From Candidatus Omnitrophota bacterium (lineage in GTDB: Bacteria > Omnitrophota > Gorgyraeia > JABMRN01 > RBG-13-46-9): a stretch of DNA of 62,098 bases. Location of the stretch: the NCBI GenBank assembly GCA_024542975.1, contig JAMXCZ010000002.1:1-62098 (forward strand). Reading direction: 5' to 3'. Both the position numbers and the translations under genes were made by a program. Shown piece after piece: positions 3,330 to 47,486 of this stretch; the stretch's first letter is position 1, and each line of letters begins with the position of its first letter. The notes beneath the pieces are model-generated. The model was given only the letters and a program-made list of their open reading frames with translations. It had not been told where the DNA came from and made no database searches.

Positions 3330-3805
3330 TGAAACATGGAATGGAAGGATGCCCGGGTTCAAGAATGCAGGATTTTAGCAAAAAAAGCGCGGATGCAAAA
3401 GAAGAAACCGGAAAGAGAGGGTCGCAGTTGGGGCAATGGCCGATTCAGCTGCATCTTGTCTCGCCCATGGCTCCGTATTATCAAAAGAGCGATGTGCTTT
3501 TATCGGCTGATTGCGTGGCTTACAGCGTAGGAGATTTTCATAAAGATTACCTTAAGGGTAAAAGTATTGCTATTGCCTGTCCGAAACTTGATGAAGGGCA
3601 GGATATATATGTCGAGAAGATAAAGTCCCTGATCGACGATGCCCAGATAAACACCTTAACGGTTATGACCATGCAAGTTCCTTGCTGTGCGGGGCTTGTT
3701 GCTGTAGCGCAAAAGGGCCTTCAGTCGGCGAAAAGGAAGATACCCATTAAGTCTATCGTAGTAAGTCTTCAAGGGGATATTATTTCCGAGGAGTGGGTAC
3801 AGTAA
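3326..3805 (+). CDS. conserved Cys-containing redox-associated protein of unknown function
   Basis: ATGA overlap with the upstream gene. The motif WPIQLHLV...ADCVAY...IACPKLD...QVPCCAGL is one I recall from proteins annotated as Fe-S-associated. Function is not established. Confidence 0.5.
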   Translation: MMKHGMEGCPGSRMQDFSKKSADAKEETGKRGSQLGQWPIQLHLVSPMAPYYQKSDVLLSADCVAYSVGDFHKDYLKGKSIAIACPKLDEGQDIYVEKIKSLIDDAQINTLTVMTMQVPCCAGLVAVAQKGLQSAKRKIPIKSIVVSLQGDIISEEWVQ

Positions 3806-10092: not shown

Positions 10093-10470
10093 ATGAAGAA
10101 GAAAATTTTGATAGTGGATGATGAAGAAGATTTTCTAAATACTACGGGGCCCATACTGAAAAATGCCGGATATGAGATTATCCAGTCTTCAAACGGTAAA
10201 GATGCCGCAAATCTGGCGAGGAAACACAGGCCGGATCTTATCCTTCTTGACATAAACATGCCCGGAATAGACGGCAGCCGTACAACGGATATCCTGAAAA
10301 ATGACGATTCCACCAGAAATATCCCCATAATATACCTCTCGGGCCTTCTTAAAGAAGCAGAGATAGAGGACGGACACATTACGGGAAGCAAGGTAGGGGA
10401 CGTCCATTTCATCTCAAAATCCCAAACGCCAAAGAAGCTCCTGGAAGCAATCAAAAAAAGTATCGGATAA
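10093..10470 (+). CDS. single-domain response regulator (CheY-like receiver)
   Basis: MKKKILIVDDEEDF...PDLILLDINMPGIDG...K. ATG 10093 is preferred over the upstream alternative start in the ORF track. Confidence 0.85.
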   Translation: MKKKILIVDDEEDFLNTTGPILKNAGYEIIQSSNGKDAANLARKHRPDLILLDINMPGIDGSRTTDILKNDDSTRNIPIIYLSGLLKEAEIEDGHITGSKVGDVHFISKSQTPKKLLEAIKKSIG

Positions 10471-10472
10471 AA

Positions 10473-10712
10473 ATGGAAGAGGGGAAAAAAGAAACCAAAT
10501 GGTATTTTAAGACTTCGTGGCTTGTGATTTTATTTCTTTCCATCGGGCCGCTTGCTTTGCCGCTTGTCTGGATCAATCCGGGATTCAGCCGGAATCGAAA
10601 GGTAATCATAAGCGTTATCGCTATTGTTATTACCTATTTCCTGTCCGTAATGTTTGCCGGCGCGGTTAAATCTATAATGAGTTATTATCAGGAGCTCCTT
10701 AAGCTGATTTAA
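10473..10712 (+). CDS. small membrane protein (2 TM), hypothetical
   Basis: 79 aa with two hydrophobic helices, tightly spaced after the receiver gene. Confidence 0.45.
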   Translation: MEEGKKETKWYFKTSWLVILFLSIGPLALPLVWINPGFSRNRKVIISVIAIVITYFLSVMFAGAVKSIMSYYQELLKLI

Positions 10713-23756: not shown

Positions 23757-24476
23757 ATGAATATAATTCCTGCGATAGACATAATGGACCAGAGGGTGGT
23801 GAGGCTAAAACGGGGAGAGTTTGGTACGGAGAAGGTCTACTCTGAGAATCCCGTTAAGGTTGCAGAGGGCTGGAAGGATTGCGGCGCGCAACTTTTGCAC
23901 ATAGTTGACCTTGACGGGGCGCGACTCGGGAAGCCGGTCAACCTGGACATTATCCGGGAGATTACGCACAGCGTCAAGATTGACGTAGAGGTAGGAGGAG
24001 GCCTTCGTAGCGAAGCCGACATTGATAAGGCCTTCAGGGCGGCAGCGCATTTTGTCGTAATCGGCACAAGTGCCGTTCAAGACGAGACATTCGTAAAAAG
24101 CCTGGTGCAAAAGTTTAAAGACAAGATAATTTTTGCGGTAGATGCAAAAGACGGGTATGTTGCGATGAAGGGATGGAAGGAAGTTTCTGGAGAAAGCATC
24201 CTTGAGTACGCTCAAAAGCTGGAGAGCCTTGGCGCAAAAAAGATCATATATACCGACATATCGCGCGACGGTATGCTGGAAGGGCCGGATCTGGAAATAT
24301 TGAAATCTATTCTGGAATCAACTTCACTCAAGGTTACGGCATCCGGAGGAATTTCCAGTATAAATGATATAAAGCAGCTTAAAAAACTGGAGGAGTTTGG
24401 GCTTACGGCGGTCATAATAGGCAAGGCCCTGTATGAAGGCCGGATTGATTTTCGGGAGGCGCTCCGTGCTGGCTAA
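23757..24476 (+). CDS. hisA: ProFAR isomerase
   Basis: [20 protein letters not shown]... with SD TAGGAGA. The track start 23667 overlaps hisH and was rejected. Confidence 0.9.
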
Positions 24477-25221
24477 AAGGATCATACCGTGCCTCGATGT
24501 AAAAGAGGGGCGTGTCGTAAAAGGCATAAACTTTGTTAACCTGCGGGACGCAGGAGACCCGGTAGAAAATGCCAAGTTTTACAATGACGAAGGCGCAGAC
24601 GAGCTTGTGTTCCTGGACATAACTGCGAGCGTGGAAAACCGGAAGACGATGCTGGACGTAGTGCGGCGCGTTGCGGAGAAAGTATTTATGCCTTTCACCG
24701 TAGGCGGCGGCGTAAGTTCTCTCGATGACATAAGGAACCTTTTAAATGCAGGTTGCGACAAGGTTTCAATTAATACTCAGGCCGTTAAAAGGCCCGATCT
24801 TATCAGCGAAGCGTCGGATAAGTTTGGCGCGCAGTGCATAGTGGTCGCGATTGACGCGAAACGCGATGCGGACAGGTGGGAGGTTTATGTAAACGGCGGG
24901 CGCAATGCTACGGGGCAGGATGCAATCGAGTGGGCCAAAAAAGCCGCCTCTCTCGGCGCGGGCGAAATTTTGCTTACGAGCATGGATAGAGACGGCACAA
25001 AGGATGGATACGATACGGAGCTTACGAGAAAAATTTCGGAAGCCGTAAACATACCGATTATTGCAAGCGGCGGATGCGGTAAACTCGAACATTTTTGCGT
25101 TGCCCTGAAAGACGGCAAAGCCGACGCGGCGCTGGCGGCAAGTGTCTTTCATTATAAAGAATTCAGCATAAAGGAAGTAAAAGAATATTTGCGCTCCAAA
25201 GGCGTTGAAGTGAGGATTTAA
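24466..25221 (+). CDS. hisF: imidazole glycerol phosphate synthase, cyclase subunit
   Basis: (V)[22 protein letters not shown] 24466 follows GGGAGG. The track start 24433 lies further inside hisA. Confidence 0.9.
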
Positions 25222-25223
25222 GG
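25211..25223 (+). repeat. 13-bp direct repeat TGAGGATTTAAGG, left copy (includes the hisF stop codon)
   Basis: An identical 13-mer lies at 27616-27628. Confidence 0.9.
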
Positions 25224-25345
25224 TTAATAGTGATTTTTAGGGATGAGTTAATAAAATCAAAAAGGAAAAATATATGTTTGGCTCGTAGATCGCACTTGCT
25301 AAAAAGGCAAGTATTTTGATTGAAACCAATGATTAAGTTTTAAAA

Positions 25346-25972
25346 ATGAAAATTTTACCTCTTATTATTTCCGTTTTAATGATATCGACGTATACTTATG
25401 CGAATACTTATGAAAACCAGATAAAAAAAATATCTAATAAAGTAGTTAAGGGTTGCTCAACTGTTGAGGAGAAAATAAGGTTATTAAGGAAGTATGTACA
25501 TGAAAAAATGAAATTTCCAGAACCACGAGTTAAGCCAAATGGAGAACCGCTTAAACCAAGCGATATATATGTTTTGAACACAATTGAAAGACTTGAATCT
25601 GGCCTTGGGGGATGGTGTGATCAACAAGTAGATGTTTTTATGGACCTTGCTAAGAAGCAAGGCATTAATAGTCGAAAGGTTTTCTTACATATTATCAAAG
25701 ACGGTACACGTACTTCGCCGCATACTTTTGCTGAAGCACAAATTGGTAGAAGATGGGTTATTGTTGATACTCTCTATGATCTAGAGCTTGTAAATATGGA
25801 AGGTGAGATGGCATCTCGTTCGGATATAGCCAAAGATGTAAACATATTACGCAATAATCCGACAATTAAAAAATTTGCAAAAAACAATCCGAACATATGG
25901 ACAGATGAAAATTATTTAAGCATGTACTACAACAATCTTGGTGCAGTGGTAAAGAACCAGCTCGGAGAGTAA
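25346..25972 (+). CDS. secreted transglutaminase-like (Cys-His-Asp) superfamily protein
   Basis: Signal peptide MKILPLIISVLMISTYTYA. GGWCDQQVDVF...SPHTFAEA...VIVDT matches the C/H/D arrangement of transglutaminase-like cysteine proteases. Confidence 0.55.
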   Translation: MKILPLIISVLMISTYTYANTYENQIKKISNKVVKGCSTVEEKIRLLRKYVHEKMKFPEPRVKPNGEPLKPSDIYVLNTIERLESGLGGWCDQQVDVFMDLAKKQGINSRKVFLHIIKDGTRTSPHTFAEAQIGRRWVIVDTLYDLELVNMEGEMASRSDIAKDVNILRNNPTIKKFAKNNPNIWTDENYLSMYYNNLGAVVKNQLGE

Positions 25973-26013
25973 TAAAAAATTATTTTTATAAAATTATAAT
26001 AACGGAGGTCAAA

Positions 26014-26721
26014 ATGGTAGCTAAAAATAAGTGGCTTGTAGGTATTGTTATAAGTCTAATTGGAATTGCTTTAGGTGTAGTGGGAATTGTTAAATTTAGC
26101 AGCATATTTTTTCAAAGAACAACAAATGGTGATTCCATTGTAATTAGTACAGGTGATATAATTGGAAATCCAATTTTTAACTTTAGTCGTCCAGCAGGTG
26201 TAGCCGATGTTAGCTCAAGAGAGCTGGGCAAATTAAAAGAAAAAATCGAAGAACTAGAAAGCTATAGAGGCTCTTTTCCAAATAGACCAAAATTGGCCAT
26301 CGCAAATCCTCGAGTAACAATGATAAATTACACAGCAGATGTTGTTCCCGCAGGTCTTGTAAAAGGTGGTTTCGAAATAACGTTTTTTAACATAGGGGGA
26401 GTTGAAGCCAAAGACTTAGTTACTAAATGGACAATAGTTGACAACGGAAGAAGAATTACTGGATTAAATGAGTGGCTTACAGAATACTTAGGACAACGCC
26501 CATTAGTCATTAAGAACATCCCTTCAGAAAATGCAAGAAGTTTAAAATACGTCCCGGATATGACAACTTATGGAAAAGGAAAAATAGCACTCACGCTCGA
26601 TTATAGCTATATCAATGCAAATACAGGCGAAACCTATTCGGAACGATATAAAGGGTTTGTTCTTTATGAAATACCCAAAGATAATAAACCAATAGACTAT
26701 AATTTCTCAAAATTGCAATAG
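26014..26721 (+). CDS. N-terminally membrane-anchored protein of unknown function (island protein B)
   Basis: TM helix WLVGIVISLIGIALGVVGIV. The C-terminal domain has RPKLAI...ITFFNIGGVEAKDL...LDYSY...EI. Confidence 0.5.
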   Translation: MVAKNKWLVGIVISLIGIALGVVGIVKFSSIFFQRTTNGDSIVISTGDIIGNPIFNFSRPAGVADVSSRELGKLKEKIEELESYRGSFPNRPKLAIANPRVTMINYTADVVPAGLVKGGFEITFFNIGGVEAKDLVTKWTIVDNGRRITGLNEWLTEYLGQRPLVIKNIPSENARSLKYVPDMTTYGKGKIALTLDYSYINANTGETYSERYKGFVLYEIPKDNKPIDYNFSKLQ

Positions 26722-26750
26722 TAGGCAAATCCAGTGGGTTTATCAAAAAT

Positions 26751-27524
26751 ATGAAAATAACTTTGACCTTCATAATTGGCTTTTTAATCGGAAGTTTAGT
26801 CATACATAAATTATTTGTAACAAAAAAAGCATTTAGAAATAAAGTACGAATACGAATTAGAGAAATTATAACTGTGGCAAGTATAATAGCTGCTATTTGT
26901 TTTTCTGGTTTTCAGGCGCATTTTTTACGTAGAGATTTCGTAGTGAGGAATAGACCATATATAACAATTAAGAAGAAGAGTGATGAGCATTCTACAAAAG
27001 AACACGAAGATCGATTATTAAACAGTAGAAATAGATATTTAATCGATGTAGGATTAGATGAAGATGAAAAAGCAGAATTTATAAACTCCCCTATTTCCTT
27101 TACAAATGTAGGTAAGACACCCGCTAAAATAGAACTGGTTGAATGTACTATTGGTAAATACGATCCAAACACGCATTATACCAGTGAAATTTTATATTCT
27201 ATAAGATTCCATAAAAATGAATTTGGTGTTGTAAAAAGAAAAAATGTTATTTTTCCAGGAGAGCATTGTTATTATGAAATGAAAATCAAACAAATTCTCG
27301 AACCCAATCCCTTAAAAAAAGATTATAATAAAAGAAGGAAAGAAATATATGAAGAATTAAAGAGAAGCATAGAAGAAAAACATTTATTTCTTGTAGTAAC
27401 AGTTGAATATACTTTTTATGATGAACATAGAATTGGTAAGCCGAGGCCCTATTATACAAGAAAGGTTTGGGAAATATCTCCTCAGTATAAAAATATTGAA
27501 ACATATCATTATGACATGGAATAG
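26751..27524 (+). CDS. 2-TM membrane protein of unknown function, distant paralog of island protein B
   Basis: RPYITI...ISFTNVGKTPAKIEL...VEYTFYD...EI parallels the motifs of 26014..26721. Confidence 0.5.
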   Translation: MKITLTFIIGFLIGSLVIHKLFVTKKAFRNKVRIRIREIITVASIIAAICFSGFQAHFLRRDFVVRNRPYITIKKKSDEHSTKEHEDRLLNSRNRYLIDVGLDEDEKAEFINSPISFTNVGKTPAKIELVECTIGKYDPNTHYTSEILYSIRFHKNEFGVVKRKNVIFPGEHCYYEMKIKQILEPNPLKKDYNKRRKEIYEELKRSIEEKHLFLVVTVEYTFYDEHRIGKPRPYYTRKVWEISPQYKNIETYHYDME

Positions 27525-27615
27525 CTTAGGAGCAGAAATTTATTGTTCTAACCAATACCAAAGTAATGATTGGGGAATTCGAAGGACACAGCACTCAATT
27601 ATTAAAGGCTTAAAA

Positions 27616-27628
27616 TGAGGATTTAAGG
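27616..27628 (+). repeat. 13-bp direct repeat TGAGGATTTAAGG, right copy (supplies the hisI SD)
   Basis: Identical to 25211-25223. Confidence 0.9.
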
Positions 27629-27635
27629 AGATATC

Positions 27636-28013
27636 ATGATTAACAAGTTAAATTTTGGAAAAGATGGGCTTATTCCCGCAATCATACAGGATCATAAAAC
27701 GGGCAAGGTGCTTACGCTTTGCTACATGGACAAAAGCGCTTTGGAGAAAACGCTGGAAGCTGGCAGGATCTATGTTTTCAGGCGCTCAAAGGGAAGGATA
27801 ATGCTTAAAGGCGAAACTTCGGGGTGCACCCAGACCGTAAAAGAGGTCTTTGTAGATTGCGCGGATAACTCGCTGCTTTTCAAGGTCGAACAAAAAAAGG
27901 CTGCCTGTCACAAAGGGTATTTTACCTGTTTCTTCAGGCGGATTAAAAAAGACGATTGCTGTGAGGTTACGGAAAAACGGGTATTTAACCCGGACGAAGT
28001 GTATAAAAAATAA
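27636..28013 (+). CDS. hisI: phosphoribosyl-AMP cyclohydrolase
   Basis: GLIPAIIQDHKTGKVLTLCYMDKSALEKTLE.G...F.RSKGR...KGETSG. Confidence 0.9.
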   Translation: MINKLNFGKDGLIPAIIQDHKTGKVLTLCYMDKSALEKTLEAGRIYVFRRSKGRIMLKGETSGCTQTVKEVFVDCADNSLLFKVEQKKAACHKGYFTCFFRRIKKDDCCEVTEKRVFNPDEVYKK

Positions 28014-44761: not shown

Positions 44762-45124
44762 ATGAGAGAGATTATATTCAAAAACTTAAATACGCCGCGC
44801 GCCAACAAACGTGATATTTCCATGGAGGAGATCGTGGAGAGGGACGGGGTGGTGTCTTCTACGAAAAAACGCTCGATGTATTTCGTGCGTGAAGTCCACC
44901 ACATGAAAACCCACGATGCGCTCCAAAAATGGGTGGCGAACAGACAAAAATCTCCCGGCTTGGGTAAGAAATTTTTCCATATTTTGCATAAATACTCTAC
45001 GAAAGATCACGAGGATAAACTGGTCTGCAAGATGCGCGGATCGTTTTGCATAATTTCAGACAAGGATGTTTACGACATAGTTTTTGTGCATGCGATAAAA
45101 ATCTGCATTCACAAAACGGAATAG
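44762..45124 (+). CDS. hypothetical protein (120 aa, His/Lys-rich), orphan
   Basis: ATG lies after GGAAGGA. I recognise no domain. Confidence 0.45.
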   Translation: MREIIFKNLNTPRANKRDISMEEIVERDGVVSSTKKRSMYFVREVHHMKTHDALQKWVANRQKSPGLGKKFFHILHKYSTKDHEDKLVCKMRGSFCIISDKDVYDIVFVHAIKICIHKTE

Positions 45125-45129
45125 GAAAC

Positions 45130-45255
45130 ATGGAACAACACATCGGAAGTCTTAAGAGCATCTTTCACATGGCAATGGTTGTTATCGTCATGATAAAGGT
45201 TCACATGATCGATAAAAAATTACGCATGCTCGAGAGAAAATTTGTAACGAAATAA
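45130..45255 (+). CDS. possible 41-aa hydrophobic-core peptide
   Basis: MEQHIGSLKSIFHMAMVVIVMIKVHMIDKKLRMLERKFVTK. Weak SD. A terminator follows. Confidence 0.3.
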   Translation: MEQHIGSLKSIFHMAMVVIVMIKVHMIDKKLRMLERKFVTK

Positions 45256-45257
45256 AA

Positions 45258-45287
45258 GTCCGCACCCAAAAAAAATGCGGCTTTTTG
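45258..45287 (+). terminator. terminator-like hairpin, CCGCA-loop-TGCGG + CTTTTT
   Basis: Short 5-bp stem with an A-rich loop and a T tract. Confidence 0.45.
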
Positions 45288-45361
45288 AGAGAGTGTGGGG
45301 ATTTCCCTCTACTCTCTTTTTTTATGCCTTTTTCCATTTGTGATATTCCGCAAGTCATATT

Positions 45362-45526
45362 TACACATCCCGGTAAGGGTAGGGGTGCCCTGCGTGCTGC
45401 GAATTCCGGCCTCAGCTAACTCATACAGGAGAAAATACAATAAGGAAACTCTATACAGTTCTCCTGTATGAGTGGATCTTCGGCCGGAATTTTCGCAATG
45501 CACCCGGGAGCCATACGGATGTGTAT
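45362..45526. repeat. long imperfect-palindrome element, copy 1 (inverted relative to copy 2)
   Basis: Helices TACACATCC/GGATGTGTA, AATTCCGGCC/GGCCGGAATT and CTCATACAGGAGAA/TTCTCCTGTATGAG, with a 25-nt apical loop. Confidence 0.8.
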
Positions 45527-45609
45527 AGAATTACCTCTCACCCTCCCCGGCACTATGCAGAAGCGACATGAAGACGAATCCGTAACTTAAGTGTGAAATC
45601 GCAGAAATG

Positions 45610-45793
45610 TGCGCTCCGGTCCGGTAGGGAAGCTAGTCCTTGGCACATTGCGAAAATTTTACCTCGAGATCCACCCAGACAGGAGAATTATACAGAGTTT
45701 CCTATATTGTGTATTCTCCTGGCTGGGTTAGCTGAAGCCAAAATTCGCGTGCCAAGGGCTAGCTTCCCTACCGGACCGGGGGGATGTAGCGCA
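45610..45793. repeat. long imperfect-palindrome element, copy 2
   Basis: A 31-bp helix (45616-45646 with 45749-45779) has a single T.G pair. An inner 14-bp helix (45674-87 with 45714-27) is also present. Loops are homologous to the reverse complement of copy 1. Confidence 0.8.
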
Positions 45794-45941
45794 ACTTGCG
45801 AAATGTTACATTTCTACACTCGAAAAGATAGGTGGCGGCTATTGCTTCTTGAGTCTGCGGCGGACTACGCGGTGGAGGAATAGGAAGAGGGTGTAGAGGA
45901 GGATGATTTCAGAGATAACAAAGAGCCAGCCGAAGTTTGTA

Positions 45942-47486
45942 TCAGTCAGAATGGTGAAGTCCACGGGCTACCCTCCGCTGTTTATCTCTTTCTACGATAA
46001 GTACTCTTGCTGTAAAATATATGAATCCGCCCCAGAAAAGAATCGCTATTAAGGCCATCATTACGATCGTAATGGGTGTAATTCCGATCGATGTAAACCC
46101 GGCACCTTGCGACACCGGTAAAATGACCGGCATAACACCGTTACTTTGCAGGATCTTTATGAGGGAAAGAATAAACAGGAGCCCCACAAAAATCGGCACA
46201 ACGGCTCGTATCCAGAACCTTATCGGCGTGTGGCTCAGTTTAACCCTCGCATTCTTATTCATCTCGTCAAACCCGCGGTTGCCCATAAAATATCCGACCG
46301 CGATTATGGCAAGTATGCCAAACACAGGGATAGCAAGTTGTCCGATTATTGTGTCCATTTTGGAAAGAAGCGCAAGTTTCGCGCCAATTCCGCCTTTTAC
46401 GAAGCCATTTAAGATAAAAGGAAACCCCATGACCCACAGTATGGCCCCTGTAATTAGTGCACTTTTTTTTCTGGGCCACCCGACTTCATCCTTAAGCCAC
46501 GCAATAGCAGGCTCCTGTATGCTTATGGCGCTCGATATGGCTCCGAACGCAAGCAGAATAAAAAACATCCCTCCAAATAAGTGCCCGCCCGGCATAGCCT
46601 CAAATACCTTAGGCAGTACGAAAAACGTAAGCCCGATCGACTCGGCCTTGCCTATAACGTTCCCAAAGCCAAGCGCAAATGCCGCCGGGAAAATCGCAAA
46701 TCCGGCCAGTATGCTCGCAGAGGTATTCCCAAGCGTCACAGCGAGCGCGTTTTGGGGTATTCCCCACTCGTCCTTCATGTAAGAACCGTAAATAAGCATA
46801 GCGCCCATCCCCAGGCTCAAAGTAAAAAACACCTGTCCCAACGCCGCAATCCACGTTTCAGGGTCAAGGAGCCCTGCCCAGCGCGGCCTCATATAAAACT
46901 CAATACCTTCCCATGCACCAGGCAATGTCACGCTTCTTATTGCAACGATTATGAGAAGCACAAAAAGCGCGGGTATCATGATCTTACACGCCCTCTCTAT
47001 ACCTTTACGGACCCCCAGAGCCAATATCCCGCTCGTCAGGCATACGGCAAGGAAGTGTACAAGAAATATCCACTTGCTCCCCAGAAACAACGCAAAATAT
47101 GCCTCCGTATCCTTCCCGAAATAGAGCCCCTCGAGAGAGGCAAAAACGAAAAATATAACCCAACTTGTTATAACGATGTAATAAGAATACAAAAAAAACG
47201 GCCCGATCACTCCCCATGCCCCTATGTCCCTTCCGAAAGGAAATTTTATCTTTTCAAACGCGCCGAGTGGGTCCCGCTTCGTGTGGCGGCCTAACACCCA
47301 TTCGCACATCATAGCGAAAATAGCAACACCCAACAGCAAAATAATATAAGGGATAAGAAATGAGGCGCCGCCGTATTTTCCGCAAAGGTACGGAAACCGC
47401 CAGATGTTTCCGAGGCCGATGGCCGTGCCGATCATCGCCGCGATCATTCCCCAGTGCGATTCCCAGGTTTCTCTCGCTTTGGCCAT
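45942..47486 (-). CDS. sodium-dependent transporter, neurotransmitter:sodium symporter (SNF/NSS) family
   Basis: GLGNIWRFPYLCGKYGGASFLIPY and about 11-12 hydrophobic helices. Confidence 0.9.
   Translation of the reverse strand: MAKARETWESHWGMIAAMIGTAIGLGNIWRFPYLCGKYGGASFLIPYIILLLGVAIFAMMCEWVLGRHTKRDPLGAFEKIKFPFGRDIGAWGVIGPFFLYSYYIVITSWVIFFVFASLEGLYFGKDTEAYFALFLGSKWIFLVHFLAVCLTSGILALGVRKGIERACKIMIPALFVLLIIVAIRSVTLPGAWEGIEFYMRPRWAGLLDPETWIAALGQVFFTLSLGMGAMLIYGSYMKDEWGIPQNALAVTLGNTSASILAGFAIFPAAFALGFGNVIGKAESIGLTFFVLPKVFEAMPGGHLFGGMFFILLAFGAISSAISIQEPAIAWLKDEVGWPRKKSALITGAILWVMGFPFILNGFVKGGIGAKLALLSKMDTIIGQLAIPVFGILAIIAVGYFMGNRGFDEMNKNARVKLSHTPIRFWIRAVVPIFVGLLFILSLIKILQSNGVMPVILPVSQGAGFTSIGITPITIVMMALIAILFWGGFIYFTARVLIVERDKQRRVARGLHHSD

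Follow-up and report, generated by a model that had tools for sequence, protein, structure and literature searches.

An islet of three foreign genes between hisF and hisI of an Omnitrophota bacterium, flanked by a duplicated piece of the hisF tail

We analysed a DNA stretch of 62,098 bp from a Candidatus Omnitrophota bacterium (positions 1 to 62,098 of contig JAMXCZ010000002.1, assembly GCA_024542975.1; below, the window) and found that its segment 25224-27615, located between the histidine biosynthesis genes hisF and hisI, was a horizontally acquired insertion of foreign DNA that duplicated host sequence. This segment, which we call the islet, carried three open reading frames (ORF1, ORF2 and ORF3) and was bounded by two copies of the 13-mer TGAGGATTTAAGG, the first of which contained the stop codon of hisF. 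The islet worked like a genomic island flanked by attachment (att) sites and having no integrase of its own. The host genes and the repeat elements at its two borders were as follows.

24433 to 25221, plus strand: hisF, imidazole glycerol phosphate synthase cyclase subunit (Pfam His_biosynth, E 1.4e-89; GC content at third codon positions, GC3, 0.56); its 3' tail was the target
25198 to 25223, plus strand: left copy of the extended imperfect repeat (AAAGGCGTTGAAG plus the core), native hisF coding sequence for K-G-V-E-V-R-I-stop plus GG
25211 to 25223, plus strand: left 13-bp identical core TGAGGATTTAAGG, attL-like, holding the hisF stop codon TAA at 25219-25221
27604 to 27628, plus strand: right copy of the extended imperfect repeat (AAAGGC-TTAAAA plus the core), an AT-shifted copy of the hisF tail with a broken frame
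27615 to 27626, plus strand: mini-ORF of three codons, ATG AGG ATT TAA, produced by an A replacing a G in the distal copy of the hisF tail
27616 to 27628, plus strand: right 13-bp identical core, attR-like, giving the first GG of the hisI Shine-Dalgarno (SD) sequence GGAG
27636 to 28013, plus strand: hisI (PRA-CH only; Pfam PRA-CH, E 7.3e-24), followed by trpEGDCFBA

The composition of the islet set it apart from the rest of the window. The GC content between the repeats was 0.28-0.36 versus about 0.51 in the flanking DNA, forming a trough of about 0.32 versus 0.49. It was the sole GC trough in the 62 kb, where all other 1-kb bins had values of 0.41-0.52, and an unbiased trough finder, which was blind to repeats, placed it at 25220-27640. 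The GC3 values of ORF1, ORF2 and ORF3 were 0.29, 0.24 and 0.19, compared with 0.50-0.59 for 15 flanking genes. In the test for atypical composition, the islet GC was 0.29-0.35 versus 0.45-0.52. Relative synonymous codon usage (RSCU) of the cargo correlated with that of the host pool at -0.05 to -0.28, while the host genes gave correlations of +0.43 to +0.84.

The site was empty in the relatives. Both hisF and hisI were found in 58 fetched loci (designated below by L numbers), and in all 31 of those with the hisF-hisI-trpE arrangement the two genes were adjacent (31/31), with 3-278 bp between their tblastn matches and with exact spacers, determined for 26 loci, that ranged from -10 to 265 nt. 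None of the three cargo genes had a match in any of these 31 relatives. The gene order hisD-B-H-A-F-I-trpE-G-D was common to the Omnitrophota relatives. The relatives used for comparison were Omnitrophota-type, and the closest ones sampled were only 75-80% identical in HisF and HisI; the HisF protein was 77-80% identical to those of Ca. Aadella gelida, Ca. Makaraimicrobium thalassicum and Omnitrophica RBG_13_46_9, and the closest HisI in the metagenome collection was 75% identical. Exact look-ups of HisF and HisI, made for a strain-level empty site, returned only two scaffolds of the same sample. Since the nearest relatives were this distant, the empty sites were compared at the family or phylum level only.

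The repeat itself allowed the insertion to be read nucleotide by nucleotide. The window contained just two exact copies of the 13-mer, one at 25211-25223 and the other at 27616-27628, whose spacing of 2405 equalled the repeat (13 bp) plus the insert (2392 bp). When one copy and the insert were deleted in silico, the junction read ...GTG AGG ATT TAA GGAGATATC ATG; the synthetic empty-site sequence joining hisF and hisI was GGCGTTGAAGTGAGGATTTAAGGAGATATCATGATTAAC. Compact junctions of this kind, in which the stop codon, the SD sequence and the ATG follow each other closely, were present in L105, L107, L094, L019, L011 and L012. In the window as it stands, the ATG of hisI (27636) lay 7 nt past the right core, and the GGAG was 5 nt before the ATG. 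A k-mer screen of 1.47 Mb, comprising the window and all fetched loci, found no other exact direct repeat of at least 12 nt, with copies 0.6-9 kb apart, that bracketed a sharp GC trough. Local alignment of the two trough edges gave z = 5.6 versus shuffles.

The similarity between the borders extended to the left of the core. Namely, AAAGGCGTTGAAG and AAAGGC-TTAAAA shared 10 matches and differed by two G>A changes and a 1-nt gap, bringing the repeat to about 26 nt in total. Such a leftward extension was equalled by 0.3% of islet 25-mers and by 0.6% of random host-by-islet pairs (p about 0.003-0.006). No similarity between the copies was seen to the right of the core (right-side score 2). We also considered that the hisF 3' end might have been duplicated over a greater length and then decayed, and rejected this, as the similarity ended at AAAGGC in both ungapped and local alignments. 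The C-terminus of HisF, K-G-x-x-V-(R/K)-(I/L/M)-stop, was conserved in the relatives. Therefore, the left copy was native coding sequence, and the right copy, which held hisF codons 2.4 kb away from the gene, was a true duplicate rather than a shared SD context. A perfect dyad, CTTAAA-ATGAGGA-TTTAAG (CTTAAA-N7-TTTAAG; strand unspecified), covered the right core at 27609-27627. Its counterpart at the left junction was GTTGAA-GTGAGGA-TTTAAG, where GTTGAA matched at 4/6 positions. A control found such a dyad in about 1% of the 25-nt windows of the islet, and the corresponding hairpin was also seen in folding. We propose that this dyad may represent the binding architecture of a recombinase.

Much of this picture had been anticipated by an initial annotation made from the sequence of the window. 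It had described the 13-bp repeat and the restoration of a canonical junction by deletion, both of which were found exactly as claimed. Its precise placement of an AT-richer insert between hisF and hisI agreed with the sole GC trough, which lay at the repeat edges, and the mini-ORF that it had attributed to the right repeat was present at 27615-27626. Two of the comparisons that it had suggested also bore out its view, with the two genes adjacent in every syntenic relative and the cargo foreign by both GC3 and RSCU. It had set against this view the possibility of native genes at a conserved SD context; given relatives without the cargo, foreign codon usage and a right copy derived from the hisF tail, this was not what we observed. 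Altogether, the segment showed the traits of a genomic island: a site empty in relatives, atypical composition and codon usage, direct repeats derived from the target, and insertion at the 3' end of a gene.

The three cargo genes, all in the orientation of the operon, were the following.

25346 to 25972, plus strand: ORF1, a transglutaminase-like protein (Cys-His-Asp) of 208 aa with a hydrophobic signal-like N-terminus (Pfam Transglut_core, 34.2 bits versus a cut-off of 23)
26014 to 26721, plus strand: ORF2, a protein of 235 aa with an N-terminal transmembrane (TM) anchor, a helix and a beta-rich domain, from a rare family
26751 to 27524, plus strand: ORF3, a protein of 257 aa with two N-terminal TM helices and a beta-rich domain, a near-orphan (AlphaFold2 pLDDT 44)

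All three products were predicted to be extracytoplasmic or membrane proteins, and the earlier description of three same-strand genes with N-terminal signal or TM segments held for each of them, as every one had a hydrophobic N-terminus. The residues Cys91, His126 and Asp141 of ORF1 were invariant across 8 homologues. Its closest homologues (78-80% aa identity) were on low-GC contigs, and the nucleotide homology was limited to the gene itself. In L087 (3042-4852) and L088 (432-1960), the closest ORF1 homologue (78% aa) overlapped a downstream TIR-domain gene by 4 nt. The product of this gene was PDC-S66/ThsB-like according to PADLOC (E 6e-65), and the neighbour in L088 was identical to the TIR protein of L087. 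Thus, the transglutaminase-like and TIR genes may form a two-gene module. The L087 homologue was downstream of XRE, EcoRI-type methylase and GmrSD genes. In L090, a locus from a metagenome-assembled genome (MAG) of Omnitrophota, the genes flanking an ORF1 homologue were an MjaI restriction-modification (RM) system together with an M78-XRE gene to one side, and to the other a RelE/MqsA pair.

The ORF2 family had 31 representatives among 1.84 billion proteins, one of them annotated from a Ca. Omnitrophica MAG. The AlphaFold2 model of ORF2 had a pLDDT of 51 and was all-beta from residue 93, and Foldseek searches with the structure models returned only weak generic Ig-like beta-sandwich matches (E > 1e-3). 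Because the model confidence was this low for both ORF2 and ORF3, we drew nothing from the models beyond a TM anchor and a beta-rich domain. The two proteins had no significant similarity to each other by BLASTP. In L083 (81% nt identity), an ORF2 homologue was followed by the single homologue of ORF3 (70% identity), and a convergent beta-lactamase-fold gene occupied the place of hisI. In L084 (1420-3588), L085 (351-1764) and L086 (300-939), the ORF2-family gene was followed by a TM-DUF5677 protein instead of ORF3. Since the next gene varied in this way, ORF2 appeared to be conserved while the genes that it was paired with downstream were variable. Upstream of the ORF2 homologue were an XRE regulator in L085 and a fragment of a type III restriction endonuclease (REase) in L084. 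One preprint lists DUF5677 with the domains that are enriched in the vicinity of defence-associated recombinases (PMC12632615). In L086 (36-704), a contig with 1.15x coverage, the ORF2 homologue was divided into two ORFs, at 39-239 and at 300-704, and was either a pseudogene or the result of a sequencing error. Neighbours of the RM, TIR, toxin-antitoxin (TA) or XRE/DUF5677 kinds were found beside ORF1 or ORF2 homologues in L084, L085, L087, L088, L090 and L091, on contigs that were few and short. The cargo is apparently drawn from a pool of low-GC accessory genes shared among Omnitrophota-like genomes.

The cargo was framed by two short non-coding ends.

25224 to 25345, plus strand: left non-coding islet end, 122 bp, with a weak terminator-like hairpin and T-tract at 25294-25312, after hisF
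27525 to 27615, plus strand: right non-coding islet end, 91 bp; the homology to L083 ended before it, at the ORF3 stop codon

The left end had no homology to any other locus among the fetched loci or in IMG/VR. No terminal inverted repeats joined the two ends, the best pairs being internal, AT-rich and 70-89% complementary. Neither end had an attC-like or other stable single-strand structure, as their folds were no better than those of shuffles (z 0 to -1.4), and Rfam had no match in them. The GTTRRRY core was missing at the boundaries, which read GGTTAATA and GCTTAAAA, and the 62-kb window yielded neither intI nor attI. There was no terminator-like site between ORF3 and hisI. Co-transcription of the cargo with the his and trp genes, which the initial annotation had considered probable, is conjectural.

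We propose that the islet arose by a single reciprocal crossover of circular DNA at the att-like 13-bp core, with the recombinase acting in trans, a scenario to which we gave an even chance of being correct. A small circular DNA would have carried the three genes together with ...AAAGGCTTAAAA-TGAGGATTTAAGG-TTAATAG... (the synthetic circle-junction sequence was ATTAAAGGCTTAAAATGAGGATTTAAGGTTAATAGTGATT). A Campbell-type crossover with the chromosome would then have taken place inside the 13-bp identity, which spans the hisF stop and the start of the hisI ribosome-binding site. In this case, the core would be duplicated so that hisF kept its native end and hisI its native SD sequence. Since both genes would thereby retain their stop codon and SD sequence, respectively, the insertion would be harmless to both. 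The catalyst could have been a site-specific recombinase whose gene lies elsewhere or has since disappeared. Alternatively, the recombination could have been independent of any recombinase and based on short homology, as documented for the integrase-less H47 island of E. coli (PMC3191183, PMC5426353). As no recombinase was seen in the islet or among the ORFs of at least 150 aa that were checked in the 62-kb window, the crossover was probably catalysed in trans. The AT shift of the distal copy was as expected if this arm stems from an AT-rich element. The site was att-like in its identical core, in the diverged similarity that flanked the core on the side of the element, and in the dyad, and the lack of terminal inverted repeats also spoke for such a site. 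We infer a circular intermediate, an att-like site and trans catalysis.

A cargo-only insertion directly past a stop codon, with a distal copy of the gene tail, was also found outside the window. Locus L091 (Logan SRR22387872_350504), fetched for its 57% ORF1 homologue, had an AT-rich islet (GC about 0.30 versus 0.47) between ftsA and yggS-proC-yggT. The first kb of this islet was a HigB/Gp49-XRE TA pair that started right past the ftsA stop. Around the TA cassette (1779-2950), the ftsA tail formed a direct repeat of 109 nt, with copies at 1779-1887 and 2842-2950 that were 75% identical (z = 21.8). This repeat started with an identical block of 15 nt and finished with one of 17 nt, the second running into the stop codon. 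The distal copy encoded an in-frame, diverged FtsA C-terminus and was AT-shifted, with 13 GC>AT versus 6 AT>GC changes. The larger islet reached to about 6100 and contained the ORF1 homologue and four small TM proteins; there was no ftsZ between ftsA and yggS. A wider screen for tail-duplication islets in the 1.47 Mb gave no further clear case beyond L091, and it had little power since the screened loci were mostly conserved flanks of the his operon. A match that it returned in L113 was presumably paralogous amidotransferase similarity of hisH versus trpG. In L008 (Nitrospiria), a 41-nt direct repeat of 97.6% identity (3732-3772 and 10461-10501) spanned 6.7 kb, and hisF and hisI were 2.9 kb apart.

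From the hisF tail and the ftsA tail of L091 as instances, one could imagine that Omnitrophota-type genomes have a recurrent insertion route that needs no recombinase in cis and places AT-rich accessory or defence-like modules precisely after the stop codons of conserved housekeeping genes, a generalisation that we consider very doubtful. With equally little confidence, the same route could be pictured as operon-embedded and integron-like, using short att sites that mimic the tails of their target genes.

A number of results weighed against the crossover scenario and against an att-flanked element that moves as a unit. Pfam found no recombinase or transposase in ORF1-3 or in the other window ORFs that were checked (at least 150 aa), and searches of the window, of 171 loci and of IMG/VR brought up neither the islet ends nor the putative att site a second time. 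The initial annotation had likewise reported no integrase, transposase or terminal inverted repeats, which the Pfam and inverted-repeat searches confirmed; a search for further copies of the 13-mer (in the window) and of the islet ends, as it had recommended, gave none. The right-end AAAGGCTTAAAATG could be the SD sequence and start codon of a former donor gene, and the 13-bp match would then be a chance microhomology. The statistics of the leftward extension and of the dyad were post hoc and overlapped on the same bases, so that we took them as suggestive only. With respect to the cargo, ORF1-3 had no match in PADLOC-DB (E <= 0.1), and neither PHROG nor NCBIfam gave a match. No cargo relatives were present in IMG/VR, among INPHARED phages or among PLSDB plasmids, and a phage- or plasmid-borne origin of the cargo was rejected for this reason. 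Moreover, comparison of the homologous loci showed that the cargo was a mosaic of separately shuffled gene-sized modules, unlike a stable unit element. An accessory role of the cargo in envelope modification or defence is suggested by gene neighbourhood only.

Several other explanations of the borders were compared with a crossover at an att-like core. The 13 bp could be a target-site duplication, produced when a cut at the hisF/hisI junction, staggered by 13 nt, was filled in once a non-autonomous transposon had inserted or a double-strand break had captured a linear fragment of foreign DNA, with the extra similarity being coincidental. The exact repeat consisted entirely of host sequence and directly abutted the foreign DNA on both sides, nothing similar lay to the right of the core, and no recombinase would be required in cis, all of which suited this explanation. 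However, the islet had neither terminal inverted repeats nor other transposon ends, no transposase and no second copy, and the leftward extension of the repeat was unexpected (p about 0.005). In addition, 13 bp is unusually long for common insertion sequence (IS) families. We thus consider target-site duplication unlikely. A block of about 26 nt that is imperfect outside its 13-bp identical core speaks for a crossover of the att-like or short-homology kind rather than for a clean duplication of the target. Accordingly, of the earlier proposal of a site-specific or target-duplicating insertion, the insertion, the duplication of host sequence and the lack of a recombinase stood, and a clean target duplication was disfavoured by the imperfect block. 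Homology-facilitated illegitimate recombination would start from a related donor in which the islet was already downstream of hisF: one homologous crossover would occur in hisF and a second, illegitimate one just upstream of the end of the recipient hisF, leaving a 25-nt remnant of the tail before hisI. This would explain why the homology ended at the stop codon and started at an arbitrary point, as well as the 109-nt in-frame diverged ftsA tail in L091. It would also fit the low GC3 (0.38) of the last 26 hisF codons. This value was at the 4.6th percentile of host windows, but a similar dip occurred inside hisF, so that it was not decisive, and a foreign hisF tail was rejected. On the other hand, the distal copies were AT-shifted (in the window by two G>A changes and the loss of a G, and likewise in L091), which is the opposite of a native remnant, and the distal copy in the window was frame-broken and unable to encode a normal hisF end. 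There was also no known relative with an islet at this site, and this explanation merely shifts the original insertion to another genome. We regard it as quite improbable.

It was extremely unlikely that the islet was an assembly or binning chimera that was not truly in the chromosome. The European Nucleotide Archive (ENA) assembly ERZ23499028 of the same sample covered the region by two scaffolds that overlapped by 55 nt inside ORF2: scaffold_2756 ended at window position 26415 and scaffold_2894 started at 26361. Although this break could be taken as a sign of a chimera, each scaffold alone crossed one of the junctions between host and islet (from hisF through ORF1 to the 5' part of ORF2, and from the 3' part of ORF2 through ORF3 to hisI). 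The joined ORF2 aligned end to end with full-length homologues, and a 13-bp repeat is far below any assembler k-mer. The break itself suggests a branch of the assembly graph within the islet, due to population or strain heterogeneity or to a related copy elsewhere. Finally, the three genes could be ancestral at the site and lost in the sampled relatives, with the repeat representing a conserved context of stop codon and SD sequence. The distance to the closest sampled relatives, which were 75-80% identical in HisF and HisI and gave no genus-level comparison, left some room for this idea. However, it would require many independent precise losses across the 31 loci, the codon usage was strongly foreign, the right copy held hisF codons beyond an SD sequence, and the closest cargo homologues were in other contexts on low-GC contigs. 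The ancestral explanation is close to refuted.

The islet resembled several known systems. The microcin H47 island of E. coli is integrase-less, has imperfect direct repeats, and excises and integrates by host functions independently of RecA; it is 13 kb in size with long att repeats, and both its excision and its integration were shown experimentally (PMC3191183, PMC5426353). Like it, the islet consisted of cargo only, with no recombinase gene, had imperfect direct repeats with short blocks of identity, and is proposed to rely on mobility functions supplied by the cell. Unlike it, the islet was only 2.4 kb, had a repeat of about 26 nt with a 13-bp core and was inside a biosynthetic operon, and its mobility is deduced from its structure. 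Islands and prophages with tyrosine integrases have their insertion site at the 3' end of a gene for a tRNA or a protein and bring a surrogate tail for this gene, which results in the classical attL and attR. The islet shared with them a site at the 3' end of a gene, a repeat containing the gene tail, an identical core with diverged flanks, a dyad over the core, foreign composition and absence from related genomes. It differed from them in that we found neither an integrase nor an excisionase and could recognise no sites of the arm type, in being 1-2 orders of magnitude smaller, and in that the hisF tail at the islet was entirely host sequence and no surrogate tail was needed.

Similar to integron cassettes, the cargo was small, promoterless, co-oriented and readable from an upstream promoter, and had no mobility gene. 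In contrast to them, it had no attC palindrome or GTTRRRY, no intI or attI turned up in the 62 kb, and the site was a housekeeping operon. Non-autonomous transposons and miniature inverted-repeat transposable elements (MITEs) also have a short direct repeat of host sequence and no transposase in the element. The islet was unlike them because it had no terminal inverted repeats and no other copies, contained three intact genes and had a repeat that extended past 13 bp. The resemblance to defence islands came from the homologues of ORF1 and ORF2, which were near genes for an EcoRI-type methylase, GmrSD, TIR, MjaI RM, RelE/MqsA, HigB-like, type III REase and DUF5677 proteins, on contigs that were all of low GC. 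Unlike components of such islands, ORF1-3 matched no PADLOC model, and all three were predicted to be extracytoplasmic or membrane proteins.

Integrase-less islets with flanking repeats are an already known phenomenon; the present one was very small, carried cargo only and was positioned with nucleotide precision in a his-trp supraoperon. It showed, at single-nucleotide resolution, how foreign genes can enter an essential amino-acid operon of an uncultivated small-genome phylum with the neighbouring genes undamaged. Should an architecture in which the element mimics a gene tail prove common, it would suggest that Omnitrophota possess a trans-acting system of integration that has gone unrecognised, and it could be used in practice to locate accessory or defence cassettes within MAGs. 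The cargo was a rare uncharacterised module of a secreted transglutaminase-like enzyme and two membrane-anchored beta-rich proteins, and it was a candidate for functional testing because its relatives adjoined TIR, restriction and TA genes.

The genes identified in the rest of the window included pilZ and response-regulator genes, cinA, ligT, recA, htrA, recX, alaS and the his genes upstream of the islet, and trp genes, sugar-nucleotide genes, lepA, lepB, der, plsY and a type IV pilus cluster downstream. A Zeta_toxin domain (E 1.9e-11) was present in a protein of 299 aa encoded at 1411-2310 on the minus strand, where the DNA was slightly richer in AT (GC 0.41-0.44). After this gene came one for a hemerythrin-domain protein and two ORFs that had no match in Pfam. 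This stretch could be another small accessory patch. Cumulative GC skew peaked at 45000-46000, where the coding strand flipped from plus to minus; this may mark a replication landmark or simply follow from the orientation of the genes.

Among the Omnitrophota relatives, the hisF-hisI spacers of L097, L096, L109, L006, L103 and L113 (100-180 nt) were filled by long near-perfect palindromes that differed from one locus to the next (fold z -4.5 to -10.5) and looked like hairpin elements of the MITE or repetitive extragenic palindromic (REP) type. The hisF-hisI junction appeared to be a recurrent, tolerated landing site.

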